This document shows, piece after piece, positions 1,820 to 39,827 of a DNA stretch of 64,000 nt. The first letter of the stretch is position 1. Every line of letters starts with the position of its first letter. The notes beneath the pieces are model-generated. The model was not told where the DNA came from. It made no database searches and worked only from the letters and a program-made list of their open reading frames with translations. The stretch lies in contig CAWBOC010000002.1 in the NCBI GenBank assembly GCA_963790305.1, positions 32,001 through 96,000 of the forward strand, written 5' to 3'. The stretch comes from an uncultured Gemmatimonadaceae bacterium. Lineage in GTDB: Bacteria; Gemmatimonadota; Gemmatimonadetes; Gemmatimonadales; Gemmatimonadaceae. Both the position numbers and the translations under genes were made by a program.

Positions 1820-2356
1820 ATGGTACGCCGTTCTCTCAGTCTCGCCGCGCTCGCGCTCGTGACGCTCACCATCGCGGCCGCGGCGCCTGCACCGCTGGGA
1901 CCGCCGTGGATCTCGATCGAGTATCCGCCCAGCCCGTACGATGCCAACACGCGAGACGCCTTCCTGCTCGTACACACCTTCCACCATGCAACGCCGATCG
2001 GCGCGCCAGTGATTGGCAAGGCGGAAGGAATCGTCTCCGGCGAGCGGCGGACCGTGTCGCTCAAGTTCGGCGGCACGTCGCGCACGGGTGTGTATGCGCT
2101 CAACAAACAGTGGCCGTCGGAGGGAACGTGGGTGCTGTTCATCACCGCCAATCAGGGCCCTAACGACGACGTCACCGCGGTGGTCGAATTGGCGGCGGAT
2201 GGCCAGGTAGCCGCCGTGCGTGTCCCAACCGAGCGCCGCGGTTCCTGGAAGGTGCCGTCCGACGTGAGCGCCGCCGACCGTGAGAGCATCGTGAAGGCGC
2301 GGCTGGCGATGAATAGCGGGGAGAAGGGGGCAGTGGCGGCGAGGGCTCCCCGCTGA
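1820..2356 (+). CDS. Hypothetical secreted protein
   Basis: GGAG upstream of ATG, signal peptide, host-like codon usage; no family recognised. Confidence 0.75.
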   Translation: MVRRSLSLAALALVTLTIAAAAPAPLGPPWISIEYPPSPYDANTRDAFLLVHTFHHATPIGAPVIGKAEGIVSGERRTVSLKFGGTSRTGVYALNKQWPSEGTWVLFITANQGPNDDVTAVVELAADGQVAAVRVPTERRGSWKVPSDVSAADRESIVKARLAMNSGEKGAVAARAPR

Positions 2357-2369
2357 TGGGCCGACTGCA

Positions 2370-2459
2370 ATAACCACAGAGGCACAGAGGGCACTGAGGA
2401 CGGCAAACTACTAACCAGTAGTTTGCCGTCCTCAGTGCCCTCTGTGCCTCTGTGGTTAT
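2370..2459. repeat. Perfect 43-bp inverted repeat with CACAGAGG-type subunits (REP-like hairpin)
   Basis: ATAACCACAGAGGCACAGAGGGCACTGAGGACGGCAAACTACT (2370-2412), loop AACC, exact reverse complement at 2417-2459; lies between convergent genes. Confidence 0.95.
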
Positions 2460-3226
2460 GCAGTTCTGCCCAGGAGCACCGGAACTACCTCCGCAGCCTT
2501 CCCCCGCATCGACACCTCCGCGACCCTCGTAAGCGGCGTCTCCTCGGGATTCACCTCGATCACCACCCCGCCGCTGGCGCGCGTGCGCAGCGGCAGCGAC
2601 GCGGCCGGGTGGACCAGCGCGCTCGTTCCCACCACGAGGCACACGTCGGCGGCCGCGGCGGCCGCGTCAGCCCTCGCGAGCACGTTCTCGTCGAGCATCT
2701 CGCCGAACCACACCACGTCGGGACGCAGAGGTGCTCCACATCGCGCGCAGCGTGGAAGCGTCGCCAACGATGTGGCATCGACCGTCACGGGCTCGCTCCG
2801 CGCACCACAACCGGAGCACCGATCGCGAAGGAGGGAGCCGTGCACCTCGATGGGAAGCGCGGACGCAGGGTCCGCCTCGCCAGCCGCGTCACGAGCGGCC
2901 CGCGTGTGCAGTCCATCCACGTTCTGCGTCACGATGGTGACCTTCGCGCTGCGCAGCGCCCACTCGGCGAGCGCTCGGTGAGCGGCGTTAGGTACACAGG
3001 CGGCGACGAGCGTGCGACGCCACGAATACCACTCCCAGACCAATCGGGGATCGCGCGCAAAGGCCTCGGGCGTGGCCAGGTCTTCCGGGCGAAACTCCTT
3101 CCATAGCCCGCCAGCACCGCGAAAGGTCGGTACGCCCGATTCGGCGCTGACCCCGGCGCCCGTGAGGACGACGACGGCGCTGGCGTCGTGCAGCAGCTCG
3201 CCCGCGCGCGTGGTCGGGTCGATCAA
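2456..3226 (-). CDS. cobB: NAD-dependent protein deacylase (Sir2 family, class III)
   Basis: GAGVSAESGVPTFRG, TQNVDGLH, HGS, two CxxC, RPDVVWFGE, VGTS, VNPE; YxxR motif (YSWR) typical of desuccinylating sirtuins. Confidence 0.93.
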   Translation of the reverse strand: MIDPTTRAGELLHDASAVVVLTGAGVSAESGVPTFRGAGGLWKEFRPEDLATPEAFARDPRLVWEWYSWRRTLVAACVPNAAHRALAEWALRSAKVTIVTQNVDGLHTRAARDAAGEADPASALPIEVHGSLLRDRCSGCGARSEPVTVDATSLATLPRCARCGAPLRPDVVWFGEMLDENVLARADAAAAAADVCLVVGTSALVHPAASLPLRTRASGGVVIEVNPEETPLTRVAEVSMRGKAAEVVPVLLGRTA

Positions 3227-4128
3227 TCGCGGACGTGGCGCGTCACAAACGCCAGCACTCGCTCGAGAATCTCACGGGTTCGCGCGTCGTGATTGCGCTG
3301 ATCGAAGCCATGGTCACCGCGGCGGTGAAGCGCAAAGTCGATCTCCACGCGGTTGGCGACCGCCGCCCGCATGAACCGCTCGATCGATTCGTTGAGTCGT
3401 GGAATCGCGTCCGCTCCAGCCATCGCAAGAAAGATCGGCGGCTGATCCCCGGGCGCAACGGTCAGCAGCTGTGCGGGTGAATACCTCCGAGCCAGCGAGT
3501 CGACATGCGCGGCGGGGTGCGCCGGCCGGAAAGGAGACTGACTCCGCATGTGCTCGAGATCGAGATATGGATAAAAGAGCACCAGGCAGCGGACCCCGGG
3601 CATTCGCTCGCGCATGAACACGCTCGCCAGCGGTCCTCCAGCCGAATAGACAGCCACGCAGAGTCTCTCCGTATCGATCCCGAGCGTCGCCGCGTTCGCA
3701 CGCACGTAGTCCACGGCCGCGGTGACGTCGCTCGCGGCCTCGGCGATGTTCTCGTCCGTCGTCATCCGATGATTGAAGACAACGCCAACCAGCCCCGCCG
3801 CCGTGGCGAGCCGGCCCCACGATCGGTACGATGGCCAGGTCGTTGGCAGCGGGCCGGCCTGCCGCGCCACCAATCCACCGTGCACGAAGATGAGTCCGGG
3901 TCGCCGTCCCGGTGCCGCGCCGGGTGGTCGATAGACATCCATGGTGAGCGCGCGAGCCACACCGTTGTCCGTGACGGTGCGATACGTGAGGCCGCGCTGC
4001 ACGACGGCGTTCCGCATCCCCGGCAGCTCGTAGCCGAGCACGTTCGCGCTCGTGTCGGTCTGCCCGAGGGCGGGTGACACCAGGCCGAGGGTCAACGAGA
4101 AAATCGGAAGAAAAGTCCTGAATGACAC
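3223..4128 (-). CDS. Secreted alpha/beta hydrolase (esterase/lipase-like)
   Basis: Signal peptide from GTG 4128; HGG oxyanion motif, YSAGG nucleophile elbow, HGF near the C-terminus. Confidence 0.8.
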   Translation of the reverse strand: MSFRTFLPIFSLTLGLVSPALGQTDTSANVLGYELPGMRNAVVQRGLTYRTVTDNGVARALTMDVYRPPGAAPGRRPGLIFVHGGLVARQAGPLPTTWPSYRSWGRLATAAGLVGVVFNHRMTTDENIAEAASDVTAAVDYVRANAATLGIDTERLCVAVYSAGGPLASVFMRERMPGVRCLVLFYPYLDLEHMRSQSPFRPAHPAAHVDSLARRYSPAQLLTVAPGDQPPIFLAMAGADAIPRLNESIERFMRAAVANRVEIDFALHRRGDHGFDQRNHDARTREILERVLAFVTRHVRD

Positions 4129-7319: not shown

Positions 7320-9987
7320 ATGGACGCACGCGCTCGACTGCTCGTCATCCTCGCCGCCGCCGGCGGTGTCTCGGTGGCGCGCGCGCAGGATTCGGCTCGC
7401 GTACTCACCGCGGTGCGATTTCAAGGCGTCGTTCGCATCGACGCAGTGCTCGACGACAGCGCCTGGACATCGGCGCAGGTCGCGACTGACTTTCGGCAGC
7501 GGGAGCCGAGCGAGGGCGCGCCAGCCACGTTGGCGACCGAGGTACGCGTGCTGTGGGATGACGAGGCGCTCTACGTCGCCGCGCGCATGCGCGACCCGTC
7601 CCCGGACTCGATCGTCGCTCTCCTCGCCCGGCGCGACGAGATGACGCCGTCCGACGAGTTCTTCATCGGCATCGACGGCGACCGGGACCGGCGCACGGCC
7701 TACGTCTTCAGTGTCACGCCTCGTGGGACGCGGACCGACGTGCTCATCTACAACGACAACATGCGCGACCCGTCGTGGGATGCGGTCTGGCAGGCGGCGA
7801 CGCGCATCGACGAGACCGGCTGGACCGCGGAGATCCGCATTCCGCTGACACAGCTGCGCGTCCGGGGGGATCGACCCTGGGGCGTCAACTTCTTTCGATG
7901 GATCGCGCGCCGGCGCGAGGATACGCAATGGGCGCTCATTCCGCGCGCGTCGCCAGCCTGGGTATCCCACTACGGGGAGCTGCGCGGTGTGACGCCGGCG
8001 TCCGCGCCGCGCCGGCTGGAGATCGTGCCGTACACGCTAGGACGCGTGACGCGGGCGCCTGGCGTGGAGGCGAACCCGTTCCATCGCCGCATGCAACCGG
8101 CGGCGGCGTTCGGCGCTGACCTCAAGGCGGGCGTCGGTCCTTTCACGTTGACCGCCGCCATCAACCCGGACTTCGGCCAGGTGGAGGCGGATCCGTCGGA
8201 GGTGAACCTGACGTCGATCGAGACCTTCCTCCCAGAGAAGCGCCCGTTCTTCGTCGAAGGGGTCGACCTGTTCGACTTCGAGCTCGGGTACTTCTTCGGC
8301 TCCGAGAAGCTGTTCTACTCGCGTCGGATCGGGCGGCGGCCGCAGGCATCGGTGCCGGGTGATCCGGCGTACGTCGATGAGCCGGATGTCACCACGATTC
8401 TCGCTGCCGCGAAGCTGACGGGGCGCACCTCGGGGGGATGGTCGGTGGGACTGCTCGATGCCGTCACCGGAGAGGAGCGCGCACGGCTCGACGGAGATCC
8501 GAGCGTACCATCGACCGTACCCGTCGAGCCGATGACGAATTACACCGTCGCGCGCGTGATGCGCGACTTCAACACCGGACGCACCGTACTCGGCGCCATC
8601 GGAACGGCGATGCATCGGCGATTGAATGGCGTCGAGACGTTCTCCGATCTGCGTTCCGCCTCCTACGCCGGCGGCGTCGACGTCCGCCATCGCTTTGGGC
8701 AAGGCGGTCAGTATCACATGAACGCGTACGTCCTGGGGACGCATGTGCAGGGGAGCGTCGAGTCGATCGACGAGACGCAGCGGTCGTCGGCGAGATACTT
8801 TCAGCGGCCCGACGCTTCGCATCTCCGACTACGACCCGTCCCGAACCTCACTTTCAGGCGCCGGCGCATTCACCGAGATCTGGAAGTCGGGCGGCAGCTG
8901 GAGGTGGGGCGCCTCGGGCCGTCTGGTCACTCCTGGGTTCGAGGCCAACGACATCGGCTATCAGCCGGGCTCCGACTTCGTCTCGCACGCCAACTGGATC
9001 GGCTACGAGTCATACCGTCAGACGCGACACTTCCGGCGGTGGTGGTGGTACCTGAACACGCTCGCCTGGTGGAATACGGCCGGAGAGCGCCACGGGCTGC
9101 GCTTCTACATCAATAGCGAAGCCGAGCTGCCTAACGGTCTCGGGATGTTCGTGAAGCTGCAGCGTGATCTGGCCGGCCTGTCACCGACGGAGCTGCGCGG
9201 CGGGCCGTCGCTCTTCCGGCCGGCACGATCGCTGGTCCTGGCAGAGGTGTGGACGAACAACGCGCGCCGACTGAGCGGTTGGGTGAACCTCATGGGCTCG
9301 AGTGAGGACGATGGCGGTGCGCGGTCGCTGACGGTCCAGCCGAACGTGACGGTGCGACCCTCCAGTCAGCTTCAGCTCACGCTGGCCCCCGCGGTCACGT
9401 GGATGCGCAACCCGTGGCAGTACGTGGACGATCCCGAGGAGGAGGGGAGCGCGCACTGGGTAGTGGCGCGCCTCGCGCAGCGCACCGCGTCGCTGACCGC
9501 GCGACTCAACTACACCTTCACACCGGATCTTTCTCTGCAGATGTACGCCCAGCCCTTCGTGAGTGGCGGGGGTTATCGCGACTTCCGGCAGGTCGTCGAC
9601 TCGCGCGCGCCGAACGAGGCTGAGCGATTCCGCGCCGTTGCGATCGAGACACCTCCCAATGCGCGCGGGGGCTCATACCTCGCGGATCTCAATCACAATG
9701 GAGGGGAATTCACCTCATTGGACGATCCCGACTTCAGCGCGCGGCAGTTCACGTCCAGTGCCGTGCTACGGTGGGAGTATCGCCCTGGCTCGACGCTCTT
9801 CGTAGCGTGGAGCCAGGCTCGGGATGCGGGCGATCCCGTTTCACCTTTCCGGTTAGGCAGTGACGTGAAGCGCCTGTTCGGGGAGCGGCCGACAAACGCC
9901 TTGCTCGTGAAAGTCAGTTATTGGATGGGCGTCTGTAACTTGTACGGGCGCTTTTCCAGCGCCTCAGTGGCGTACGATCGCGCCTGA
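7320..9987 (+). CDS. DUF5916 protein (CBM9-like N-terminus plus probable outer-membrane domain), split by a +1 frameshift near 8826
   Basis: WDDEALYVA, GWTAEIRIP, NPDFGQVEADP, EKRPFFVEG, FYSRRIGR in the first frame; VLRWEYRPGSTLFVAW and KVSYW in the second; removing one C at about 8826 gives continuous ...PDASHLDYDPSRTSLSG. Confidence 0.8.
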
Positions 9988-11073
9988 GGCCGCGTCAAAC
10001 AGGTGCACGCGACGTCCGTCAGCGACCAGCTGAATACGGTCGCCGACGTCCGGGAGATCGCGCGAGCGCGTCTTGGCAGTCAGCTCGTGCGTTCCCGCAC
10101 GTACGTGCACCAGGGCTTCGCCCCCGAGGGGCTCGACGAGATCGACGGTGGCGTCGAGCGCCGTCTGTTCGGTGGTCGCGGCAGCCTCGGTAGCGAGGTG
10201 TAAATGCTCCGGTCGAATGCCCAGGACGACTTCGCCGGATGCAGGTGCCTTCGCGACGAGCGACTTCGGCAGCACGATGGCTGGCGCGCCACCCTCGGCC
10301 ACGAAGCGGGGGGATCCGTTGGTCGTTAGGGTGCCCTTGAGGAACAGCATCGCCGGACTGCCGATGAAACCGGCCACGAAGCGATTCCCCGGCCGCTCAT
10401 AGAGCGCCTCGGGTGTGTCGACCTGCATCACGTGGCCTGCGCTCATGACGACGATGCGGTCGCCCATCGTCATCGCCTCGACCTGATCGTGCGTGACGTA
10501 GATCGTCGTCGCTCCGAGCCTGCGGTGCAGGGAGAGGATCTCTCGACGCATCTGCACGCGGAGCTTCGCGTCGAGATTCGAGAGCGGCTCGTCGAACAGG
10601 AAGACCGCCGGCTTGCGCACGATGGCTCGCCCCACCGCCACGCGCTGCCGCTGACCACCGGAGAGCTGCTTCGGCAACCGGTCGAGCTCAGTCGTCAGGC
10701 CGAGCACTTCCGCGGCTTCACGAACGCGCTGATCGATCTCGCTCTTCGGCATCTTGCGGAGCTTCAGAGCGAAGGCCATGTTGTCGCGCACTGACATGTG
10801 CGGGTACAGGGCGTAGTTCTGAAACACCATCGCGATGTCGCGGTCCTTCGGCGGAACGTCGTTCACTGCGCGGCCGCCGATGGAGAGCTTGCCCGCCGTG
10901 ATCGACTCCAGTCCGGCGATCATCCGCAGTGTCGTGCTCTTCCCACAGCCGGACGGTCCCACGAGCACGACGAACTCGCCATCGGCCACACTCAGATCGA
11001 CGCCGTGCACGGCCACGTGGCCTTGAGCGCCCTCGTATACTTTGCGCACGCCTTCCAGCGTCACTTGCGCCAT
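9964..11073 (-). CDS. Sugar ABC transporter ATPase (MalK/UgpC/MsmX family)
   Basis: GPSGCGKST, LSGGQRQR, FLFDEPLSNLDAKLR, YVTHDQVEAMT, C-terminal TOBE region; GGAGG RBS. Confidence 0.96.
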   Translation of the reverse strand: MAQVTLEGVRKVYEGAQGHVAVHGVDLSVADGEFVVLVGPSGCGKSTTLRMIAGLESITAGKLSIGGRAVNDVPPKDRDIAMVFQNYALYPHMSVRDNMAFALKLRKMPKSEIDQRVREAAEVLGLTTELDRLPKQLSGGQRQRVAVGRAIVRKPAVFLFDEPLSNLDAKLRVQMRREILSLHRRLGATTIYVTHDQVEAMTMGDRIVVMSAGHVMQVDTPEALYERPGNRFVAGFIGSPAMLFLKGTLTTNGSPRFVAEGGAPAIVLPKSLVAKAPASGEVVLGIRPEHLHLATEAAATTEQTALDATVDLVEPLGGEALVHVRAGTHELTAKTRSRDLPDVGDRIQLVADGRRVHLFDAASGAIVRH

Positions 11074-11090
11074 ACCGCGTCCTCCCCTCG

Positions 11091-12458
11091 ATGAACGGCA
11101 CGACTTCGCGAGACGACTTTCGCTTTCCCGACGGCTTCCTGTGGGGTGCGTCGACCTCCGCGTACCAGATCGAAGGGTCGCCGCTCGCCGATGGTGCCGG
11201 CTCGAACATTTGGCATCGATTCAGCCACACGCCCGGTCTCGTCAGGAATGACGACACTGGGGACGTCGCCTGCGATCACTATCGCCGGTGGCGAGACGAC
11301 ATCGGTCTCATGAAGGAGCTCGGTCTCGGCGCATATCGCTTCAGTATTGCGTGGAGTCGGATACTGCCTCAAGGCACGGGAGCGGTCAACACGCGCGGAC
11401 TCGATTTCTATGATCGGCTGGTGGACGGGCTCCTCGAGCAGGGCATTCAGCCCCTGGTGACGCTCTACCACTGGGACCTGCCGACCGCCCTCGATGACCG
11501 CGGCGGCTGGCTCAACCGCGACATTGGCGCATGGTTCGCCGAATACGCGAGCGTCGTCTTTCGCAAGCTCGATGGGCGTGTGAAGAAGTGGGTGACGCTC
11601 AACGAGCCATGGGTCGTGACCGACGGTGGATATCTCTTTGGCGTGCTCGCGCCCGGACACAAGAACCTCTATGAAGCACCCCTCGCCACTCACAACACGC
11701 TCCGTGCCCACGCGCTCGGCGTCCAGGCATACCGGGCCGAGGGAAAGCACGAGATCGGCCTGGTGGTGAACCTCGAGCCCAAGTATCCGGCGTCGGACAC
11801 CCCGCGCGACCTCGCCGCGACGGCGCGCGCCGACGCGTACATGAATCGCCAGTACCTCGATCCCCCCCTGCTCGGGACGTATCCTGAAGAGCTGCGAGAC
11901 GTCTTCGGCGACGCGTGGCCGGACTTCTCAGCCGACGACATGCGTCTGTTGAAGCAGCCGATCGATTTTCTCGGTATCAACTATTACACCCGCTCGGTGA
12001 CGCGCGACGATCCGGCGGCGCTGCCCGTGCGCGCGAGCCGCGTGCGTCAGTCGCGCCACGTGCACACGGAGCTCGATTGGGAGGTGTGGCCCGACGCGCT
12101 GATGGACGTGCTGCTCTGGGTGACGAAGCGCTATGGCCGCATTCCACTCTACGTGACCGAGAACGGCTCGGCGTTCTACGACCCGCCGTCGAGTGAAGAC
12201 CTGGCCGATGATCCTCTCCGTACCTGGTATCTGCGAAACCACCTGCGCGCGGTGCATCGCGCCATGCAGCAGGGCGCCGACATGCGCGGCTACTTCGCCT
12301 GGTCGCTGCTCGACAACTTCGAATGGAGCCAAGGGTACTCGAAGCGATTCGGTCTCGTGCACGTCGATTATGCGACGCAGAAGCGCACGGTGAAGGGGAG
12401 CGGGCGGTTCTATTCCGAGGTCATTCGGACGAATGGAGCTTGTCTGGCTGGTCGATAG
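11091..12458 (+). CDS. Beta-glucosidase, glycoside hydrolase family 1
   Basis: FPDGFLWGASTSAYQIEG, YRFSIAWSRI, TLNEP acid/base, VTENG nucleophile, WSLLDNFEW. Confidence 0.96.
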   Translation: MNGTTSRDDFRFPDGFLWGASTSAYQIEGSPLADGAGSNIWHRFSHTPGLVRNDDTGDVACDHYRRWRDDIGLMKELGLGAYRFSIAWSRILPQGTGAVNTRGLDFYDRLVDGLLEQGIQPLVTLYHWDLPTALDDRGGWLNRDIGAWFAEYASVVFRKLDGRVKKWVTLNEPWVVTDGGYLFGVLAPGHKNLYEAPLATHNTLRAHALGVQAYRAEGKHEIGLVVNLEPKYPASDTPRDLAATARADAYMNRQYLDPPLLGTYPEELRDVFGDAWPDFSADDMRLLKQPIDFLGINYYTRSVTRDDPAALPVRASRVRQSRHVHTELDWEVWPDALMDVLLWVTKRYGRIPLYVTENGSAFYDPPSSEDLADDPLRTWYLRNHLRAVHRAMQQGADMRGYFAWSLLDNFEWSQGYSKRFGLVHVDYATQKRTVKGSGRFYSEVIRTNGACLAGR

Positions 12459-12484
12459 TCTTGGTTATAGCGGCAAAATCATTA

Positions 12485-12687
12485 CTGGCATCCAGGTTCA
12501 AAGGGGGACGCGGATTTCGCGGATTCAGCGGATCAGGCGGATGGCTCCTGGCGCCTAGAACTCTCCTCGCGCAGGAAAAAACACTGCTTTTTGCTCCTGT
12601 AGGGGAGGGATCACGGCACAAAGGAGCGATCCGCCTGATCCGCTGAATCCGCGTAATCCGCGTCCCAACTTTGAACCTGGATGGCAG
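12485..12687. mobile_element. ~203-bp non-coding hairpin element, copy 1 (MITE/REPIN-like)
   Basis: Termini CTGGCATCCAGGTTCAAAG ... CTTTGAACCTGGATGGCAG, internal 9-nt CGGAT tandem units in inverted arms; second copy at 39622-39827. Mobility is inferred from the dispersed copies. Confidence 0.8.
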
Positions 12688-12698
12688 CCCAAAGCAGT

Positions 12699-15600
12699 TC
12701 AGTACTCGAACCGAACCTCACGAGCCGGCGCCAGCAGCACCAGATCACCGCTCGCATCCGGGCTCGCTGGTCGCCCGTCGACAGCAATCCGTCGCGCCGG
12801 TAGATCGCTCGGATTACGCACGACGATCCCTGCGGCCGGCATGCGGAATCCGGGGTCAAACGAAAAGACAATCGTATCGCCAACCGCGCGCGCATGATAT
12901 CCGACGCGGCCGAACCGCGTCGGCAGTGCGCGTACCCGCACGCCATCCCCCTCGCGAAGCCACTCGTCCTTTATTCCAGCACCAATGACCAGGATGCCTC
13001 CTGTCTCCTGCTCGTCCTCATAGGCGAAGAGATCGAGCACCGAGCGAATGAAGTCCGACGCCACCCAGCCATGTGGCAGATCGCCGAAGAAGCGCGGAAT
13101 GCGGGGATCGCGCCACACGACCTCGGGCCACTGATTCCACTCACGGGGGCGTGCGTCCTTGAACAGCCAGTCGAGCACTTCGAGTGCGCGGTCGCGCCAC
13201 CCGAGCCTCACGAGTGAACCGGGGACGCGAAATTCGTACGGGGTGTACGCCTCCCAGGTCTGCGGACCATCGCGCCGCTTGACGAACTCCTCGTAGTATC
13301 GGGCGAAGGTTCGCTCGACCGCCGCGCGCGGCAGGCGGTGCAGCTCGCCACCGGGCGCCAGGCCCACCGTCGTCGAGGTCGCGTCGAAGTCGCCGAGGTC
13401 GGCGGCACCGGGGATATAGTCGATGTTGTGCACGCGCATCGACGCCTCGATCGACGCGATGAGATCGACGCGGAACGTGTCGCTCAGCGCGCCAATGCGT
13501 CGTGCCTCATCGAGCTCGCCGAGCGTCGCCGCCAGCTCCGCGGCGTCCTTGAGGCCGCGCAACGCGAAAAAGTCGTCCCAGTACGAGTGCATCGGCTTCG
13601 CCGAGTACCCCTCGTGACTGATGGACGGGGGAAGAATGCCGCGGAAATGGCGTTTGTCCGGCGCGTCGTATTCAGGCGTCAACCGCTGCCGCCGCAACGT
13701 GTCGATGTAGCCTACGGCGTCGACGATCCTCGGCCAATTCGTCCGCGCGATGCTCGTGTCTCCCGTGAGGCGCACGTACTCGGCGATGAGATAGATCAGC
13801 TGGCCATGGCTGTCGTGCTCGGGCACCGGGTCAGCGCCGCGGTGATCGACGCAGCAGGGCACCTTGCCGTTGTCGTATTGGAAGGGCGCGTACCATTCGA
13901 TGAACTCACGCACTTCGCGCGTGCCGCCAATGCGTAGCAATGCGGCTGACGTCAGCGCCCCGTCGCGAATCCACGACCGCTCGTACGACCGCGATCCTGG
14001 CTGAATCCTCGGCCCATCGCGATTGAGGAGAATGTGCGCGAGCGAGCTTCGCATCGCGCGAATGATCGGGGCGCCCGAGGCGGGGAGCACGATCGGGATC
14101 GCGTCGAGCCGCGCCTGCCACTGCCGCCTGGTGACGTTGAAGCTCGCGTTGGCCTCGGCGCCCGTGCGCGGCGCCAGGGCGCGGGCCCGCCGTGACGGGA
14201 GCGCGATCCAGACATCGCGGTGCGAACGGGCGGGGATCGCCAGCGGAAAGGAGAGCGCACCGCTGGCGAACCCAAGGGAATCGCTGACGGTTGCTGCTGC
14301 CGGCAGGCGACCGGTCCGCAGATGATCGACAATGTCTCCGGCGTCGAGCGTCGTCGCACCGAAGGCGCTAGGTGCCTGCAGCGGCACCACGTGCGCGGTG
14401 TCGTTCACGTGCACGCGCCCGCTACGCCACACGATCGAGCGAATGGGTGAGAATCCGCCGGTCGTGTTGAGGAACTGCCACGCCGAGTTGACCTGGAAGG
14501 GGCGAACAGCGACGTAGAGCGTGGGACGCGCGGCTGAGTCCGAGGTGTTCGACACGCGATAGCGCGCGAGCACCGTCGCTGCCCCCGCGCGCCCCATCGC
14601 GAACGATGTTACGTCGAGGGTGAGATTCCCTGTCCGCCACTGTACGGTCGGAATTGGAAGGTCGCCGGCCTCGAGCGACCGCGTGATCTCGACGTCGTTC
14701 CAGCTGAGGAGTTGTCCTTCGGCGCGCAGAAACGGCTCGATGGTGAAGCTGCCTTTGTCGCTCTCGAGCGCACCGTCTTCGCTGAACAGCGATTCGCGGA
14801 AGTCGCCTTCGACGCCGACGAGCGTCCAGAAGGTCTGGCGGTCCGGCCAATATCGGGGAAAGCTCCCAGCGGGCGCTTCCCGTGCGATGTCGGCGAAGAA
14901 GGCGTTGTGCGTCGCCGACCACTCCAGCGGCTTCACGCGAATCTCGCGAATGCCGACGCCGCGGCCGCGGCTCGTCGTGCGCGCGAGAACACGGAGCCAC
15001 TGGGCTTCCGACTCGGGCATGTAGAGCCAGTCTCGCCCGCCGTTGCCCCGTGTCACTCGGTGTGCCACTCGCCACGTGCGTTGATCGCTGGACGCGAGCA
15101 CCTCGTATGAGCGTGCGTAGTCGACCGAATCCCAATCGATGACGAGGCCGCCGAACTCGCGCCGGTAGCCCAGGTCGACGGTGAGCGAAGGCATCGCCGT
15201 CACGCGAGACCGCCACGCCGTGGTGCTGTCGTTGTCGACGGCGGCCGGGCCCTCGGCGGCGACGAGCGGCGGCGGAGTCGCGGGAACGGGGGGAAGGGGA
15301 ATCACCCGCAGGTCATCGATCCAGACTGAGCCTTTCCCACCGGTTCCGGCGGTGACGGCGATCTCGATACCGGCGGCGCGCTTCAGGTCCCCTCCGCCTA
15401 ACGGCCCCCACGCAAACGAGACCTGGCGTCGTTTGATCCGATACGTCGTCCAGGTGGTCGGGAACGCAAAGTCGCGCCGGTTCAGCCACCAGACGTTCTC
15501 GCCGCTGGCGTCGCTGAGCTTGAACTCGAGGTTGTTCTTCGGGACGGTGGCGCGGACGCGAAAGGTGATCTCGTAGTTTTCCGGCAGCTCGAGGTCGACA

Positions 15601-15842
15601 GCCCGCCGAGCGACGGCGTACCCACCGCCGCCGTGGAAGTCGATGTCCATCCGCATCGTACCAGCGACGGGAACGAGCTGGAGCGACACGCCGTCCGATG
15701 GAACAGCGGTCCAGGCCGCCAGCGACGAGAAGTCGTCGATGACGCGCGGCTCCTGCGCCGAAACCGGCGACGCAAGGACGGTGATCAACACCGCCTGCGC
15801 AAAGGGCACAACCAGAATTCGCAGGCTCGAATCGACTTTCAT
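12699..15842 (-). CDS. Secreted discoidin (F5/8 type C)-domain protein with C-terminal six-hairpin glycosidase-like domain
   Basis: Signal peptide; AAVDNDSTTAWRS and LTVDLG discoidin motifs; YERSWIRDG, EHDSHGQ, SYWDDFF and WPE motifs resembling (alpha/alpha)6 inverting glycosidases. Confidence 0.8.
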   Translation of the reverse strand: MKVDSSLRILVVPFAQAVLITVLASPVSAQEPRVIDDFSSLAAWTAVPSDGVSLQLVPVAGTMRMDIDFHGGGGYAVARRAVDLELPENYEITFRVRATVPKNNLEFKLSDASGENVWWLNRRDFAFPTTWTTYRIKRRQVSFAWGPLGGGDLKRAAGIEIAVTAGTGGKGSVWIDDLRVIPLPPVPATPPPLVAAEGPAAVDNDSTTAWRSRVTAMPSLTVDLGYRREFGGLVIDWDSVDYARSYEVLASSDQRTWRVAHRVTRGNGGRDWLYMPESEAQWLRVLARTTSRGRGVGIREIRVKPLEWSATHNAFFADIAREAPAGSFPRYWPDRQTFWTLVGVEGDFRESLFSEDGALESDKGSFTIEPFLRAEGQLLSWNDVEITRSLEAGDLPIPTVQWRTGNLTLDVTSFAMGRAGAATVLARYRVSNTSDSAARPTLYVAVRPFQVNSAWQFLNTTGGFSPIRSIVWRSGRVHVNDTAHVVPLQAPSAFGATTLDAGDIVDHLRTGRLPAAATVSDSLGFASGALSFPLAIPARSHRDVWIALPSRRARALAPRTGAEANASFNVTRRQWQARLDAIPIVLPASGAPIIRAMRSSLAHILLNRDGPRIQPGSRSYERSWIRDGALTSAALLRIGGTREVREFIEWYAPFQYDNGKVPCCVDHRGADPVPEHDSHGQLIYLIAEYVRLTGDTSIARTNWPRIVDAVGYIDTLRRQRLTPEYDAPDKRHFRGILPPSISHEGYSAKPMHSYWDDFFALRGLKDAAELAATLGELDEARRIGALSDTFRVDLIASIEASMRVHNIDYIPGAADLGDFDATSTTVGLAPGGELHRLPRAAVERTFARYYEEFVKRRDGPQTWEAYTPYEFRVPGSLVRLGWRDRALEVLDWLFKDARPREWNQWPEVVWRDPRIPRFFGDLPHGWVASDFIRSVLDLFAYEDEQETGGILVIGAGIKDEWLREGDGVRVRALPTRFGRVGYHARAVGDTIVFSFDPGFRMPAAGIVVRNPSDLPARRIAVDGRPASPDASGDLVLLAPAREVRFEY

Positions 15843-16971: not shown

Positions 16972-16975
16972 ACGG

Positions 16976-17060
16976 CGAGGTTATCAAGGTCGTCGAGGAT
17001 GTCGAGGTAATCGAGGTGAAGTCGCCTTGATCACCTCGACATCCTCGACATCCTCGATCA
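16976..17060. repeat. Imperfect palindrome of TCGAGG-containing 9-mers, copy 1
   Basis: About five CGAGGnnnT-type units followed by four CCTCGAnnn-type units; between convergent genes; same unit at 33896-34001. Confidence 0.9.
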
Positions 17061-17879
17061 CCCTTTGACACTCCCCGCCATGATCCCGCGGACATAGTAC
17101 CGCTGCAGGAAGAGGAAGACGACGAGCACGGGCATCACCGTCAGCACCGACCCGGCCATCATGAGCTCGACGTCCTGCACGTGCTCGCCTAACAGGTTCG
17201 CCAGCGCGACCGGGAGGGTGTAGCGGCGCTCATCGCTGAGCACGATCAGCGGCCACATGAAGTCGTTCCACGTCGTCAGGAACGTCCAGATCGCCAGGGT
17301 GGCGAGGATCGGCGTGATCACCGGGAGCACAACGGCGCGGAATATTCTTGCCTCGCTCGCGCCATCGATGCGCGCCGCATCGAGCAGATCGTCGGGAATC
17401 GCTGTCGCGTACTGCCGGATGAGAAAGATCGCGAAGATGCTGGCCATGCTCGGGATGATCACGCCCCAGTAGGTGTTGATCAGCCCGATCTGCTTGAAGA
17501 TGAGGAACAGCGGCAGCATCACGACCTGCACCGGCAGCATGAGGCCGGCGGCGAGCACGCGGAACGTCACGTCGCGCCCACGGAACCGGAGCTTCGCGAA
17601 CGCGTAGCCCGCCATCGCATTGATGATGAGCGATGTGCCGGTGACGGTGAACGCGACGAGGATGCTGTTGAGCAGATACCGTCCCATGTCGAGCCGGGTG
17701 AACACGGCGCGGTAGTGCTCGATCGTCGGGTCGCTCGGCACGAACTTCGGCGGCAGCGCCGTGGCCTCGCCCGTCGGCATGAACGACGCCGCCAGCATCC
17801 AGATGACCGGGATGAGCGCGAGCATCGCCCCGAGTATGAGCGCCAGGTGTAGCAGGATGCTCTGCCACCTTCTACTCAT
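17058..17879 (-). CDS. Carbohydrate ABC transporter permease (MalG-like)
   Basis: AGYAFAKLRFRG, DAARIDGA (EAA loop), WNDFMWPLI; ATG overlaps the upstream stop. Confidence 0.95.
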   Translation of the reverse strand: MSRRWQSILLHLALILGAMLALIPVIWMLAASFMPTGEATALPPKFVPSDPTIEHYRAVFTRLDMGRYLLNSILVAFTVTGTSLIINAMAGYAFAKLRFRGRDVTFRVLAAGLMLPVQVVMLPLFLIFKQIGLINTYWGVIIPSMASIFAIFLIRQYATAIPDDLLDAARIDGASEARIFRAVVLPVITPILATLAIWTFLTTWNDFMWPLIVLSDERRYTLPVALANLLGEHVQDVELMMAGSVLTVMPVLVVFLFLQRYYVRGIMAGSVKG

Positions 17880-21611: not shown

Positions 21612-24575
21612 TCACGAGCGCGGCCTGGCAAAATCGAATTCTGCCCCGATTTGGAGCCGCCGCGGGTCACTGCTCACGCACCCCGCCTTGCCGAAGCTCG
21701 AGTCCTGCGGGTTGGTGTTGAAACAGCCAAGGTTCTGCCAGTTGAACACGTTGAACATGTCGATCGTCACGCCCATCCTCGACCCGCCGAACCGGGCGAA
21801 ATCCTTCCGCAGGCGCAGATCGAGGGTCTTGAACGTCGGTGGATCGAACCCGCCGGGGACGAAGTTGCGCTGGCACGTCGCCGCTGGGCCAACGCACGCA
21901 AACCGATCGCCCACGTCGACGCGAGCGCCGCTGCCGACAGTCAGCAATCCACTGAACTGAATCCCCCAGAGGTATGGGACGTCGAGGATCCAGTTCGTGA
22001 CCACGCGGTGGCGCTCATCATTGCGCTTCTGCCTGGGATAGTCGGCGGGATTCGGGAAGCTGAAGAGGTCGTTGAAGCCCTGCGTTTCCCGCTCGGCGAT
22101 CGTCCACGCAATGCCGCCGCCCCAACCAAAATTCTCACTCGAGCGCCGGTAGAATCGGTCGAGCTTGACCTGCACCGCGTTGTACCAGGTCTTGCCAGCG
22201 TTGTCCGCGAACAGGATCGTGCTGTATCCGGGGATCGTGTTATCCACGAAACACCCTGGTACGGCAAACGATCGTTGCGCGCAGGTGAAGTTCGCATCGG
22301 CCCAGTAGAACGTCAGCTGATTCTTGCTCTGGATGTTTGAATACGCTGCCTCGAGCAAGAACGTCCCCAGCGCCTGCCTGACGCCGAGTGTCCATTGGGT
22401 CGACCGCGGTGGGCGAAGGTCGTTGGGCAACAGCTTGACTTCGGGATTCAACGCATTGATCGCGGCCGCGGCCGCCTCGACGGCGGGCTTCCCTTGCGTC
22501 AGCAGAGCCGGGTTGAAGCGAATCTGATTCGGCCCCGGCGTTGAATCGGCCGGCACGATCTGGATGTTGTACCGCGGGTGCTGAAGCGCGAAGCGCTCTT
22601 CCAGGGTGAAGTCGTAAAGGGTGCGATCGTAGAAGATTCCCCAGGCGCCAAAGACCGTCGTCCGCTCCGCCTCGCCGATTCCATAGGCGAAGCCGACGCG
22701 TGGCTGGAACGCTCCGTAGAACTTGTCACGCTGGGAGCCGTCGGTGAAATAGCGGCTCTCATCGAGTGGGAGGAACAAGCGACTGCGATACTTGCGCAGC
22801 GAATCGACGATCGCGCGAGGCGTTACGTAGTCGTAATTCATCATCTTCGACTCGTAATCCCAGCGGACGCCCAGGTTGACCACCAGGCGCGATGTCGGAT
22901 TCCAGTCGTCCTGCAGATACAAACCGACCTGTGTGTTGTCGTCGCTGAAATTCGGATCTCCGGACTCGAACTCCACGCGTTGCGGAATGCGGAATCCGTA
23001 GTGCCAGGGCTCGTAGACGAACCGCGGGATCTCACTGTTCCGCTTGATGACGTCGTACTTCGCGAAGTCGACGTTGCCACCCACCTTGAAGACGTGCGAT
23101 CCGGCAACCTGGAGTCCGGAATACGTCACGTCGTTGCGGAGCGAGATCCGCTGCTGCGTGAAGTCCTGAACCGAGACGTTGCTCCCGATCTGCGCGCATC
23201 CGGCGTTGCAGAATCCGTAGAACCGATTGATCGGACCGGACTGATTCGGTATGGGGTTGTAGTGATACTTCTGATAGCTGAGCATTGCCTCGTTGAGGAT
23301 GGTTCCACCTGCGTACGTGTGTTTCAGCACGCCGGTGTTCACATCGTTGTTGAACCGTACCCCCGTCTCGAACGACCGCTGCAAGTCGGACCCTGGCGTC
23401 CCAAAATCGCGGACGTCATTCTCGGTCCGTAGGTTGTAGCTGAGCTCGAACGTTGAGCCGGGGGTGTGGAGGTAGGTCAGCTTCCCAAAGCCGAGCAGTG
23501 CGCGGAAGGGCTGGTCGAAGAGACCGTTGCGCGAGGCGAAATCGATCGAGTCGAGCGCGACCGAATCCGGCGGTGTGATGGTCACCCTCGCCGCGCGGTT
23601 CTGCCGGTTGAGCTCGAACGAGCCGAAGAACCGGAGATTTTCGGTCAGCGGTCCGCCGCCACTCGCGCCGAACTGGTAGCGTTCGAAATCCGGCTTCTGG
23701 AAGGTCGATCCTGGGGCGTTCTTGGACGCGCGCTGGAAGGAATCGAGCGCGACGAGATCCTTGTTGAGGATGTTGAAGAACGCGCTCCCTTCCCACACCG
23801 GGCCGCCCGTTTTCGTCGTGGCGGTAATGATCGCGCTGGACGCTTTCTGGTACTCGGCCTTGTAGTTCTGCGTGATCACGCGGAACTCCTGGACCGCGTT
23901 TCGGGGGAACGGGTTCCCGCGGCTGGCATCCTGCCCGACGACCCCGCCCTGCAGAATGTCATTCTTGTACGTCGCGCCATCGATGAAGACGTTGATCTGC
24001 TCGGCGTTTTGGGCGCCTGACGTCAGCGTCTTGCGCACCGCGTTCATGCGGTCGTTCTGCAGCTGCGTCCCGGGGGCAAGGACGGCCAGGTTGAGGAAGT
24101 TGCGCTCGGCGCTGGGAAGATCGTTGATCTGCTCCTGCGTGACGTTGGTGGCGACCTCCGACGTCTTCGTCTCGACCACCTGCTGTTGGGCCGTCACTTC
24201 GACCGCGGTCAGGGTCACAGCCGTCTCGTCCAGGCTGAAATCGATGTCGAGTGTCTGACCGATTTGAACGCGGATGGTGCGCGACTGAGGTGCCATGCCG
24301 AGGCGGCGTGCCGTGAGCTGATAGGGGCCGGGGCGCAATCCCGAGAGATTGTAGAAGCCCTGATCATTGGAATTCGTGGCACGCTCCTGACCGAGCTCTG
24401 TGTTCCGAGCGGCCACGATTGTTCCAGCTAGCGGTGTTCCGCCCGGTCCTCGCACGTAACCTCGGATGGCGCCGGTGGTCGTCTGTGCCATTCCCGCGCC
24501 CGCCGTTACGGTGAGCAACGCCAGAGCAAACACCGTCGCGCGCGGAAGCCACAGGGATACAACACGAGAAATCAT
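21612..24575 (-). CDS. TonB-dependent outer-membrane receptor (Oar-like, carboxypeptidase-regulatory N-domain)
   Basis: Signal peptide; GFYNLSGLRPGPY, AVQEFRVITQNYKAEY, TTKTGG, YLQDDW, LGVRWDY, FQPRVGFAY, PRRLQIG. Confidence 0.92.
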   Translation of the reverse strand: MISRVVSLWLPRATVFALALLTVTAGAGMAQTTTGAIRGYVRGPGGTPLAGTIVAARNTELGQERATNSNDQGFYNLSGLRPGPYQLTARRLGMAPQSRTIRVQIGQTLDIDFSLDETAVTLTAVEVTAQQQVVETKTSEVATNVTQEQINDLPSAERNFLNLAVLAPGTQLQNDRMNAVRKTLTSGAQNAEQINVFIDGATYKNDILQGGVVGQDASRGNPFPRNAVQEFRVITQNYKAEYQKASSAIITATTKTGGPVWEGSAFFNILNKDLVALDSFQRASKNAPGSTFQKPDFERYQFGASGGGPLTENLRFFGSFELNRQNRAARVTITPPDSVALDSIDFASRNGLFDQPFRALLGFGKLTYLHTPGSTFELSYNLRTENDVRDFGTPGSDLQRSFETGVRFNNDVNTGVLKHTYAGGTILNEAMLSYQKYHYNPIPNQSGPINRFYGFCNAGCAQIGSNVSVQDFTQQRISLRNDVTYSGLQVAGSHVFKVGGNVDFAKYDVIKRNSEIPRFVYEPWHYGFRIPQRVEFESGDPNFSDDNTQVGLYLQDDWNPTSRLVVNLGVRWDYESKMMNYDYVTPRAIVDSLRKYRSRLFLPLDESRYFTDGSQRDKFYGAFQPRVGFAYGIGEAERTTVFGAWGIFYDRTLYDFTLEERFALQHPRYNIQIVPADSTPGPNQIRFNPALLTQGKPAVEAAAAAINALNPEVKLLPNDLRPPRSTQWTLGVRQALGTFLLEAAYSNIQSKNQLTFYWADANFTCAQRSFAVPGCFVDNTIPGYSTILFADNAGKTWYNAVQVKLDRFYRRSSENFGWGGGIAWTIAERETQGFNDLFSFPNPADYPRQKRNDERHRVVTNWILDVPYLWGIQFSGLLTVGSGARVDVGDRFACVGPAATCQRNFVPGGFDPPTFKTLDLRLRKDFARFGGSRMGVTIDMFNVFNWQNLGCFNTNPQDSSFGKAGCVSSDPRRLQIGAEFDFARPRS

Positions 24576-25781: not shown

Positions 25782-28700
25782 TTAGAAGCTGTAGCGCACC
25801 CCCAGCTGCAAGCGACGGGAACTCTCCGCCACCACGCCGTTAGGTGCCCCGAACGCCGGCTGCAGGTTCAACCGGTTGAGCGCCGGATCGCGGGGGTTGA
25901 GGTTCACGACACGCTGGTACGACGCGACGGTGCTGTTGAAGCCGCTGAAGTTGTCGAAGTCGAACACGTTGAAGACCTCGGCGACGATACTCAGCTGCTG
26001 TCCCTGAACAATGTTGAGGTCCTTTTGCAGGCGGATGTCGACGTCACGATACGCCCAGGCGTTGGGAATGATGAAGTCCTTTTTTGGCGGGCGCCCCATA
26101 TTCCGGCCGAGCCCAGGGGGGAAGTCGTCGGACAGGAAGTTCCCGGCGCAGGGCGCATTCGCGGGGGGGCCGCCGGGCTGACCGACGAGCTCGCACGCCG
26201 GGAGACGCGCGCCGCACGTCGAGCCGGGAAGGAAGGCCTGGCAGATCTCGGGCGGCGGGTCACCGCCGAGTACGACGTTGAATGGGCGTCCCGATCCCAG
26301 GTTGATGATCGTGCTGAATCTGATGTCGAATGGCAGCACGGTGATGAAGTTCGCGACTACGCGATGGCGCTCGTCGGTATCGTCGGGCTGCCACCGCAGA
26401 TCCGACGGCCGGTACACGTGAAGGCTGAAGTTCGAGTTCGTCGACGACGGGATGTTCGCCTCCGCTTTGCTGAGCGTGTAGTTCAGAGAGCCGCCCCAGC
26501 TCCATTTCCCCTGGTGCACGAATGGGCGCTCGAGCGTGACGTACATGCCGTTGTAGCGCGTCTTGCCGATCGGCTCGGCCAGCAGGAGGTTGCCGAAGTC
26601 GTCCGAGATCTGGCAACACGCGCCCCACGGCTGCCGGTTCCCGAAGAAGAACGTCAGCTTGTTGGAGCTGCGCACTCCGGTGTAGCTCAGGGTGGCCCGG
26701 TACGCACCGAACGCCTTGCGTACACCCCCACTCCATTGGTACGCCTTCGGCGGCTCCAGGTCGTTAGGCAGCATGGGAAGCTCGGGGCGCGCGGCCGACG
26801 TACCCGAGGCGACCAGCGCCAGCAATCCCTCCCGGCTGAGATACGCATCGTCCCACTGAATGGTGGGGTTGCCTGACCCGTCCGGCAGTCCGTCGGCCGA
26901 GAAGCGGAAGATGTAGCGCGGGTAGCTGATGTTGAGCTTCTCGCCGATGGCGATTCCGGCGTATTCGCGGTCGTAGTAAATGCCGACGCCTCCAAAGAGC
27001 GTCGCATCGGCGAGCTCAGGGACTTCCCACGAGAATCCTATGCGCGGCTGGAATGCGCCAAGGAACGGGCTCCGCTTGGCAGGGTCGGCGAAGAAGCGGT
27101 CGGTGGTTCGGCTCTCCCAGCCGGGAATCGGAAGCAGCCAGGGTGCTGCTTGCGTACGGACCGAGTCCGGGGTGCGCCAGTCCGCGTTGAGCATCGATGA
27201 TTCGTAGTCCCAACGGATGCCCAGGCTCAACAGAAAGCGCGGCGTGATGTTCCAGTCATCCTGCACGTACACGCCGATCTGTGTGTTGTCCGACTTCACC
27301 CTGGGATCGCCAATTCCCATCTCGGCCTGGAAGGGGAAGGCAAAGTTCTCCGTCGCTCTGAACCTGAATTCCGGGTTCCCGAACAGCTCACGCGTGATGT
27401 CGTATTTCGAGAATGCGACCGTCGCCCCCGCCTTGAACACGTGGGAGCCGTACCACTCCGGCATGGTGTACGTGAGATCGTTGCGAAGCGTCAGCTTGTC
27501 CTGAACGAAATCCTGCTCCGTCGAGCGTCCCCCGGTGGTGCCGACGCCGTCATACACACGCCCGACGTCGGTTCCCTCGAATCGAATGGGCTTCCACTGA
27601 TATCGCTGGATATCGGCATGCGCCTCGTTGAGCAGGTTGCCGCGCGCATACTGGTAACCGAGCACGCCAGTGTAGACATCGTTATTGAAGTACTCGCCGC
27701 GTGTACGAGCTGTGTTCCCCCCGAAGCCGCGAATCTCGTACTCATCCCGCACGTTCGCGCTCAGCTCCCACCGATGACGCTCAGCGGGCTGATACGTGAG
27801 CTTTCCAAAAAACAGGTTCGATCGCAGCGGAGAGGTAAACGTTCCGCCAATTCCCGTGAGATCGTCCACGACGTTTTGAGGCCGCCCGCTGAGATTCGGC
27901 TGGACGACGTCGACGGCGCGGTTCTGATGGTTGGCCTCGTACGACGCGAAGAAGAAGAGACGGTCGCGAGCGATCGGTCCGCCGAGGCTGGCGCCGAACT
28001 GGTTCTTCCCGAAGTCGACACGCCGGAAGTTCACATCGCGTCGCTGGAAATACGTCCGGCCGATCGAGCTCTCGTTCTGTCCGAAGTAGAACACCTCGCC
28101 CTGGAATTCATTGGTGCCCGACTTCGTCGTCGCCGTGACGATCGCGCTGGTGGCCTTCGCGTACTCCGCCTTGTATTGCTGCGAGATTACTCGGAATTCC
28201 CGGACGGCGCTCTGCGGGAACGGATTCCCACCGCTGGCGTCCTGTCCGGCGACCCCTCCGGTCAGAACCTCGTTCTTGTAGCTCGCTCCGTCAATGAAAA
28301 CGTTGACGAGGTTGGGGCTCAGGCCGCTGGCGGTAATGCTGTTCCGATTCCCGCTCGGGACGACACCGGGCGCGAGCGTGGCGAACTCGAGAAAGTCGCG
28401 GTCGTTGAGCGGAAGGTTCTCGATCTGCTCGACCGAGACGTTCGTCGCCACTTCCGGCGACCGCTGATCGGTCTCGACGGCACTCCCGACAATTTCGACG
28501 GCAGCGAGCTCCGTCGCCGCCGCAACGAGCCGAAAGTCGAACGTGAGCTGCTGCCCGATTTGCGCGCGCACCCGCCGTGTTTGCGGCTGGACACCGATGC
28601 GCCGGACGGTCAACTCGTACTCGTCGGGTGGGAGCCCGGCGAGAACATAGAATCCGCGCGCCGACGTGGTGGCGTTTCGGGTAAAGTTGGTGGCGAGACT

Positions 28701-32577: not shown

Positions 32578-32675
32578 GGCGCTAGAGGCGCTAAAGGGCG
32601 CTAGAGGCGCTGAACTTGCGCACGCCTGTAGCGCCCTAGCGCCTTTAGCGCCCCTAGCGCCTCTAGCGCCTCTAG
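32576..32675. repeat. Imperfect palindrome of GAGGCGCTA 9-mers
   Basis: Four GAGGCGCTA-like units, a 16-nt spacer and five TAGCGCCTC-like units; overlaps the stop codons of both convergent neighbours. Confidence 0.92.
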
Positions 32676-34001: not shown

Positions 34002-34011
34002 CCTTCTGCCC

Positions 34012-39559: not shown

Positions 39560-39621
39560 GTGCGCCAAGGTAGCCTTGGGCCCGGAGTCACGCGAGACGC
39601 CCTGCTGGCACAACAGCATTA

Positions 39622-39827
39622 CTGGCATCCAGGTTCAAAGGGGGGACGCGGATAACACGGATTTAGCGGATCAGGCGGATCGTTCTTGGAGCCGTGAACT
39701 CTCCTCGCGCAACAACAAAAACAACTGTCTTTGTGGCTGCAGAGGAAAGTTCAATGCGCCCAGGAACAATCCGCCTGATCCGCCAAATCCGTGTTATCCG
39801 CGTCCCAACTTTGAACCTGGATGCCAG
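39622..39827. mobile_element. ~206-bp non-coding hairpin element, copy 2
   Basis: Perfect 19-bp terminal inverted repeat CTGGCATCCAGGTTCAAAG/CTTTGAACCTGGATGCCAG, CGGAT tandem arms, core GAACTCTCCTCGCGCA shared with copy 1. Confidence 0.8.

Follow-up and report, generated by a model that had tools for sequence, protein, structure and literature searches.

The 64,000-nucleotide stretch of Gemmatimonadaceae DNA analyzed here, which we call the window, holds two near-perfect hairpins of about 200 nt. Copy 1 lies between convergent genes for a GH1 glycosidase (10929-12458, +) and an F5/8-type-C protein (12699-15842, -), and copy 2 lies between genes for a GMC oxidoreductase (37641-39467, -) and a metallophosphoesterase (39844-40974, -). 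No canonical terminator (no T-run) or promoter was detected at either window copy. The original prediction, made from the letters of the window, had described both copies, and its coordinates and features were correct at both sites. The parts of the two copies are as follows.

12485-12687: copy 1 hairpin, 203 nt, near-perfect (sequence inspection)
12474..12484, +: copy 1 outer left module CAAAATCATTA, which includes the "CATTA" of the original prediction
12485..12503, +: copy 1 left terminal inverted repeat CTGGCATCCAGGTTCAAAG (sequence and terminal 17-mer search)
12504..12545, +: copy 1 left arm, GGGGAC and then four 9-nt GCGGATNNN units at 12510-12545 (direct reading)
12546..12625, +: copy 1 asymmetric core AACTCTCCTCGCGCA ... 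GCTCCTGTAGGGGAGGGATCAC, imperfectly paired; sets the orientation of the element
12626..12668, +: copy 1 right arm, four NNNATCCGC units at 12626-12661 and then GTCCCAA (direct reading and fold)
12669..12687, +: copy 1 right terminal inverted repeat CTTTGAACCTGGATGGCAG (sequence and terminal 17-mer search)
39622-39827: copy 2 hairpin, 206 nt, near-perfect (sequence inspection)
39611..39621, +: copy 2 outer left module CAACAGCATTA (flank alignment)
39622..39640, +: copy 2 left terminal inverted repeat CTGGCATCCAGGTTCAAAG (sequence and 17-mer search)
39641..39683, +: copy 2 left arm with four 9-nt units at 39648-39683 (direct reading and fold)
39684..39765, +: copy 2 asymmetric core (comparison with copy 1, fold, and arm alignment)
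39766..39808, +: copy 2 right arm, four units at 39766-39801 and then GTCCCAA (direct reading and fold)
39809..39827, +: copy 2 right terminal inverted repeat (sequence and 17-mer search)

Copies are thus built on a modular plan of a 19-bp terminal inverted repeat, four-unit GCGGATNNN arms, and an asymmetric core of about 80 nt, and some also carry an outer terminal module. The terminal inverted repeats of about 19 bp are present as predicted and pair at 18 of 19 positions in copy 1 (one G/C mismatch) and at all 19 in copy 2. Four 9-nt GCGGATNNN units per arm could be read directly in both copies, and sequence comparison confirmed that the copies have a common core. When the window was searched with the terminal-repeat 17-mer, allowing at most 3 mismatches, we obtained five matches against 0.09 expected. 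Four of these are the arms, and the fifth, at 27356 with 3 mismatches, is chance-like.

Near-full-length foldback was also borne out. As RNA, each copy folds into a single rod, with an energy of -157.0 kcal/mol for copy 1 (z -18.5) and -156.3 kcal/mol for copy 2 (z -22.3), and none of the 200 shuffles of either copy was equally stable. The DNA fold of copy 1 has an energy of -92.5 kcal/mol (z -18.3), and the entire element folds as single-stranded DNA. By direct reading, each terminus forms only a 4-bp CTGG/CCAG stem, and the terminal 30 nt have no longer one.

The two copies are 80% identical. Over 73 arm columns, their left arms differ at 8 and their right arms at 9; five columns changed in both arms, four of which retain a Watson-Crick pair in both copies, and zero core columns changed on both sides. 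The compensatory pattern in the original prediction is therefore real, but the statement that the copies differ mostly in both arms together was too strong, as such changes make up a minority of the differences.

A dispersed repeat family in Gemmatimonadaceae

A genome-collection scan with the exact 20-base terminal pattern returned 19 loci, and the counts are lower bounds. Eighteen of the 19 are in five Gemmatimonadaceae MAGs, with L008 overlapping L007. The other locus, L019 (Deltaproteobacteria), was rejected as a chance match to the 20-nt pattern within coding sequence, with no hairpin. Using nhmmer and a profile of the two window copies, we found 20 full-length copies of 195 to 207 nt, the window's two included. 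Outside this full-length set there were two copies cut at contig ends (L010 and L013), one half copy (L006), and one insert-bearing copy (L011); other copies lie within a few hundred bases of a contig end. The original prediction had allowed for a case in which only two copies exist and show no covariation; what we found was 18 further full-length copies and significant covariation among them. In a plasmid blastn search with the element, the sole match was 42 nt of CGGAT units in Gemmatirosa.

All copies are intergenic, and the family is spread among housekeeping genes in at least six genomes, with ordinary neighbors by Pfam (rpoA/rpsD, ruvB, hrcA, accC, mdh, surE, and GH1). Over the 20 copies, the terminal repeat is the most conserved block and the interior is far less conserved; each 9-nt unit has an invariant GGAT and a variable triplet that differs freely between copies. 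Extra tandem terminal units of about 22 nt are found at one or both ends of L003 (2524-2545), L007a/b (1270-1340 and 3690-3740), L009a (2523-2565), and L012 (2430-2760, three per side). Tandem dimers occur at L001 143-581, L010 8-376, L013 2262-2635, and L009 2329-2757, and in the dimers of L001, L010, and L013 the spacer is conserved, 35 nt long, and includes a small palindrome of its own. The L001 and L013 contigs share a 524-nt overlap at 92% and possibly represent a single locus.

One MAG has the same dimer, 35-nt spacer included, at two of its loci, and copies group partly by genome, as with L007a, L007b, and L012, which are 88% identical at three sites in one MAG (JAICNG). This genome-wise clustering, together with the repeated dimer, argues for copying within lineages. 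Mobility as such is indicated by the dispersal of the copies rather than by observed events. The top identity between copies at different loci is 88%; since no pair exceeds it, activity may be ancient, or near-identical copies may have been lost at MAG contig breaks.

The 42 window ORFs and the 66 ORFs flanking other copies (108 total) contained no domain of a transposase, an integrase, or an HUH enzyme. Between the two inverted copies at L007, which are separated by about 2 kb, lie SurE and a diacylglycerol-kinase-like gene and no transposase. These results support the predicted repeated, ORF-less, nonautonomous element.

Gemmatimonadota are abundant soil bacteria, and to our knowledge almost no mobile or repetitive DNA has been described in them. 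A full-text literature search returned no report of miniature inverted-repeat or repetitive extragenic palindromic elements for Gemmatimonadetes or Gemmatimonas. As far as these searches show, the family is undescribed for the phylum Gemmatimonadota. The hairpins are a lineage-restricted, previously undescribed family of intergenic palindromic repeats of the familiar REPIN/ERIC/MITE kind. The family is also a marker that breaks MAG assemblies, as seen in the two copies cut by contig ends. On balance, we think that the window hairpins are probably members of an ORF-less REPIN- or MITE-like foldback repeat family of Gemmatimonadaceae, about 200 bp long, that is copied in trans and whose arms are made symmetric by exchange.

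Covariation and the symmetry of the arms

Covariation was examined in an alignment of the 20 copies, using the RNAalifold consensus of 46 pairs and 500 shuffles. Across the 20 copies, 95.0% of consensus-pair cells pair. There were 9 double-changed pairs, compared with 4.8 ± 1.3 in shuffles (2 of 500 shuffles reached this), and 27 double-changed cells, compared with 10.2 ± 2.7 (0 of 500). The covariation score was 0.122, against 0.075 when shuffled (0 of 500) and at most 0.052 in slid controls. The check for covariation proposed in the original prediction was thus positive in this shuffle test. Eight of the 9 double-changed pairs are in the CGGAT-unit helix (helix 2) and none is in the terminal repeat (helix 1), which hardly varies.

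The arms also match within copies. The complementarity of a copy's own left and right arms was 80.6%, versus 76.3% for arms of different copies, and 0 of 10,000 permutations reached this. The advantage is uneven, and many copies gain nothing in pairing from their own partner arm. In duplex energy, own arms averaged -116.1 and foreign arms -107.1 kcal/mol (standard deviation, 14.3); 7 of the 20 left arms had at least 9 foreign partners that pair at least as well as their own arm, and the window copies were among the best paired of the family. Of the 1374 arm cells, 1102 were Watson-Crick, 50 were G.U, 69 were A.C, 117 were transversion mismatches, and 36 were indels. An A.C cell is G.U on the other strand; wobble is favored on neither strand.

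Copy 1 has an ortholog, L004, in a related species, and this pair displays changes to the arms directly. Synteny between L004 and the window extends over 9984-15172, at 87.35% identity. The element is identical at 174 of 204 positions, with identical terminal blocks, compared with 7 of 15 and 7 of 22 in the nonelement spacers; its conservation between the orthologs is about equal to that of the coding flanks. Two mismatched pairs are swapped between copy 1 and L004 (T.T versus A.A and G.G versus C.C), a hallmark of segmental inversion within the palindrome. Among copies, a CAG/TCT bubble is found in both orientations relative to the core. The orthologs also differ at about 6 of 12 positions in one stretch of the right arm, with no change in its partner arm; these clustered one-arm changes look like a conversion tract and not like point mutations. 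It is established that inverted arms can recombine and that template switching occurs in quasi-palindromes, and each of these processes would give "compensatory" patterns with no RNA involved.

The missing wobble bias, the arm swaps, and the one-arm tract argue for DNA-level processes over RNA selection, and they point to a DNA palindrome kept symmetric via arm-to-arm exchange and not to a selected RNA. Recombination, or template switching inside the palindrome, would then maintain arm complementarity in the DNA itself, the "compensatory" changes would need no selection for an RNA fold, and any effects on adjacent transcripts would be a by-product.

We weighed this against an RNA-level feature, that is, a hairpin transcribed in 3' untranslated regions or as a rod-like ncRNA and selected for its fold (as a stabilizer, a terminator lacking a U tract, or an RNase III site), with dispersal being secondary. 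The extreme predicted RNA stability, the significant covariation, and the coding-like conservation between orthologs are in keeping with such a feature, the last of which could equally mean a host function. So is the placement of the element. Neighbor orientation was taken from GC3-heuristic gene calls and counted only where both neighbors were callable, and in all such cases at least one gene 3' end adjoins the element. There were five convergent contexts (four independent) and six or seven tandem ones, the left gene at L005 being ambiguous; the sole candidate for a divergent context is the L001/L013 dimer, provided that the overlapping contigs are one locus. However, orientation in the tandem contexts is mixed, with the element along transcription in one or two cases and opposite to it in five. 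No T-run terminator was detected at either window copy. No Rfam 15 match at gathering score was found in the window, where E-value mode gave only subthreshold hairpins resembling miRNA precursors (the best, MIR856, at 51.7 bits versus a gathering score of 297). Wobble bias is missing on either strand, transversion mismatches are as common as transition mismatches, and the arm swaps are signatures of DNA events. Given these results, we consider an RNA-level origin unlikely, and the ncRNA half of the original prediction finds no specific support, there being no Rfam family, a mixed orientation, and no wobble bias.

A symmetric DNA palindrome carries a caution with it, in that "compensatory" substitutions in a palindromic repeat alone are no evidence of a functional RNA. 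The family also offers a natural system for studying how long palindromes remain symmetric, with arm swaps and clustered one-arm changes visible directly in the copy 1/L004 pair.

Termini and a proposed route of mobility

The flank alignment suggested in the original prediction showed that CATTA closes an 11-nt block with the consensus CAACATCATTA. This left flank, with variants, is present in 5 of the 20 copies (copy 1, copy 2, L004, L005, and L015), two of which, copy 1 and L004, are orthologs. ATTAC or AATAC is at the left junction in 5 of 20 copies and unrelated bases are there in the other 15; in copy 1, copy 2, L004, and L005 the junction reads ATTAC followed directly by TGG. At L015, the reverse complement of the 11-nt flank also follows the right end, and because it recurs inverted there, the flank behaves as part of the element and not as a target. 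The 11-nt module is conserved at 10 of 11 positions between copy 1 and L004, versus 7 of 15 in the adjoining spacer. The left ends of L014 and L018 read GCAACGAGCCATCGGGC(C/T)GG, which L018 also carries inverted at its right, and by eye the 11-nt block looks like a shortened form of the longer L014/L018 outer module GCAACGAGCCATCGGGCC. The exact 10-mer GCAACGAGCC has six occurrences in the 141 kb examined, five of them at hairpin termini, and in L009 it stands at both ends of an unrelated hairpin family. Thus, the CATTA flank does precede both window copies, but it belongs to a modular outer layer of the element rather than to an insertion target.

As predicted, there is no target duplication. 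None was found at any of 196 boundary settings, the best scores being 7 of 21 copies with a 2-mer, 4 of 21 with a 3-mer, and at most 1 for k of 5 or more. If the family was copied as we think, the element is or was carried to new sites in trans, presumably by an enzyme that reads the conserved termini. A DDE transposase is disfavored because there are no target duplications; more likely candidates would be a recombinase or an enzyme of the single-strand or hairpin type, such as has been proposed for REPIN/RAYT.

The specific enzyme put forward in the original prediction was a transposase of the IS608 type (IS200/IS605, HUH), which would move the element as single-stranded DNA and insert it 3' of TTAC with no duplication. 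The missing duplications are consistent with this, as are the ATTAC-TGG junctions of both window copies, L004, and L005, the folding of the whole element as single-stranded DNA, and the left-only 11-nt extension, which makes an asymmetric unit as in IS200/IS605 ends. However, TTAC or ATAC is at the left junction in only 5 of 20 copies; the common flank is 11 nt and not 4, resembles GCAACGAGCCATCGGGCC of L014/L018, and is inverted at the L015 right end; each end can form only a 4-bp CTGG/CCAG stem, the dominant fold being one full-length hairpin; and no Y1 transposase domain (PF01797) or other HUH domain was found among the 108 ORFs. TTAC was accordingly rejected as an insertion target, and movement by an IS608-type enzyme seems very unlikely indeed.

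Compared with the IS200/IS605 PATEs, the element is similar in having no target duplication and in a plausible dependence on hairpins or single strands. It differs in having no conserved left tetranucleotide and in folding back over its full length, versus two subterminal hairpins, and no TnpA was found among the 108 ORFs. Correia/NEMIS MITEs are short, ORF-less, intergenic, and hairpin capable, with terminal inverted repeats, and the Gemmatimonadaceae element resembles them in all of these. MITEs derived from DDE elements carry target-site duplications (TA for Correia), whereas this element has none, and no parent insertion sequence with these termini was seen. ERIC/YPAL elements are whole-length imperfect palindromes that are intergenic and mostly transcribed, with size variants by internal insertion and no known mobilizing enzyme. 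Our element is like them in being a whole-length imperfect intergenic palindrome with size variants via internal insertions, but its sequence and phylum are unrelated, and it has periodic-unit arms and sharply conserved 19-bp termini. Integron attC sites are imperfect palindromes of 57 to 141 nt with RYYYAAC/GTTRRRY core sites, arrayed in one orientation. By eye, the element, at about 200 nt, occurs as dispersed singletons in both orientations, and its GTTGGGA/TCCCAAC agrees with 6 of the 7 positions of the core motif.

The closest described system is REPIN/RAYT. A REP is a short palindrome, imperfect and led by a conserved tetranucleotide. The Gemmatimonadaceae element, at about 200 nt, is longer than a REPIN (about 70 to 110 nt), its ends are not REP-type palindromes (4-bp stem only), its arms are 9-nt tandem units, and its host phylum is Gemmatimonadota. 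No RAYT gene was seen in the roughly 140 kb sampled, a scope at which one RAYT per genome is easily missed, and in a literature search for RAYT and Gemmatimonad the matches listed were all unrelated word matches. REPINs carry conserved ends around a variable spacer that forms a hairpin and shows compensatory changes; they also occur in tandem clusters and have an asymmetric 5' tail (PMC3116915). The Gemmatimonadaceae element and REPINs are alike in being extragenic, ORF-less, and symmetric, in having conserved ends and a variable spacer that form one long hairpin with compensatory changes, in their ordered tandem clusters, in an asymmetric 5' tail on the putative intermediate, and in having no conventional target duplication.

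GxxExxY genes and other periodic-unit hairpins

The original prediction had proposed a search for longer copies containing an ORF. One such copy, L011, does hold a gene, but the gene encodes a GxxExxY nuclease and no transposase. This copy and the related features from Gemmatirosa kalamazoonensis plasmids are listed here.

L011 1820-2524: element copy with a 486-nt insert, GxxExxY protein on the minus strand (TIGR04256, E 1.4e-32; PF13366)
L021 964-1743 (Gemmatirosa kalamazoonensis plasmid 1): GxxExxY gene at 1201-1566, with two similar hairpins of about 160 nt made of 11-nt GGACTGAAGAA units
L020 2447-2545 (Gemmatirosa kalamazoonensis plasmid 2): short CGGAT-unit hairpin immediately past a stop codon

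In L011, the outer arms still pair around the insert and the tail of the ORF is encoded by CGGAT units. In L021, a 127-nt outer inverted repeat brackets the gene and both hairpins. In both Gemmatimonadaceae cases (2 of 2), the GxxExxY gene sits within or next to hairpins of this kind. A PDB sequence search with the GxxExxY protein gave no relative at E of at most 0.1, and the literature searched held nothing on GxxExxY gene context, giving the function of PDDEXK_3 as "Unknown". The association between these genes and hairpins is a lead and not a conclusion, and with it the family gives a lead on the biology of the widespread GxxExxY proteins.

Taken further, the hairpins would be vehicles, targets, or remnants of GxxExxY PD-(D/E)XK nuclease cassettes, and the window copies would be empty derivatives. 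The pairing of the L011 outer arms around the 486-nt GxxExxY insert suggests this, as does the plasmid 1 gene of Gemmatirosa kalamazoonensis, which is 67% identical and lies between its two hairpins of about 160 nt; by direct reading, the ORF 3' end runs into hairpin units in both cases. However, the gene is in only 1 of about 24 family copies by tblastn, there are just two Gemmatimonadaceae examples, and no long hairpin lies within 700 nt of any of 4 GxxExxY genes from other phyla. Hairpins are also common in these genomes (the 141 kb examined contain about one every 20 kb), so that adjacency could be coincidence or nested insertion. We regard a cassette origin as quite improbable.

Simpler structures accompany the element. 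The Gemmatirosa kalamazoonensis megaplasmids carry, at 15 and 10 places, shorter hairpins made of GGAC and GCGGATNNN units only, which have neither the 19-bp termini nor the core. The window holds three more periodic-unit hairpins (2348-2481, 16973-17077, and 33885-34002), and further ones are found in the other loci. The studied element is one elaborate member of a broader hairpin habit of these genomes.

The units repeat strictly every 9 nt and each has an invariant GGAT, which could also fit a host-recruited, BIME-like DNA structure, that is, a 9-bp protein-binding array or a cruciform at nucleoid, replication, or transcription boundaries. The simpler CGGAT-unit hairpins at 25 places on the two Gemmatirosa megaplasmids and the conservation of the element at an orthologous site agree with this. 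However, there is no known binding protein, the unit's variable triplet differs freely among copies, and these genomes have other hairpin families with unrelated units of 7 to 13 nt, so that the periodicity may reflect slippage. In our judgment, recruitment by the host is a very improbable origin for the element.

A wider and decidedly doubtful proposal is that there is a Gemmatimonadaceae superfamily of modular "periodic-unit hairpins", in which CGGAT, CACAGAG, GGTNNTCGA, and GGACTGAAGAA interiors share termini such as GCAACGAGCC, nest at one another's centers, flip their arms through recombination inside the element, and serve as the habitat or mobilization substrate of GxxExxY PD-(D/E)XK nuclease genes. 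If this were true, periodic-unit hairpins would be an undescribed nuclease-associated mobile system targeted to cruciforms or hairpins.

Several further hairpins and repeats were observed. A second hairpin family, with CACAGAG-type units, is found at window 2348-2481, L006 468-617, and L009 620-810. The window member has an almost perfect stem of about 60 bp (-119.4 kcal/mol, z -14.8). The L009 hairpin is bounded by GCAACGAGCC and its complement, and the L006 and L009 hairpins have a common core, ..GAAGG(G)CTTTTC.CAAAAGCA... The z values of the hairpins at window 16973-17077 and 33885-34002, which consist of 9-nt GGTNNTCGA units, are -7.3 and -5.7; one is between convergent genes, and the other is directly upstream of a DinB/IMS-family polymerase gene (32672-33895, -).

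Two other kinds of repeat were seen in the window. Window 41629-41888 has three repeats with a spacing of 114 to 117 nt inside a DUF4097 ("toastrack") gene (41049-42077), and these are probably protein repeats. At 21612-24575 and 25782-28880, about 4.3 kb apart, are paralogous TonB-dependent receptor genes (CarboxypepD_reg and OMP beta-barrel) that are 72 to 78% identical in patches. The pair lies within a sugar utilization cluster with a LacI regulator, a glucoamylase, an ABC sugar transporter, and GH1.
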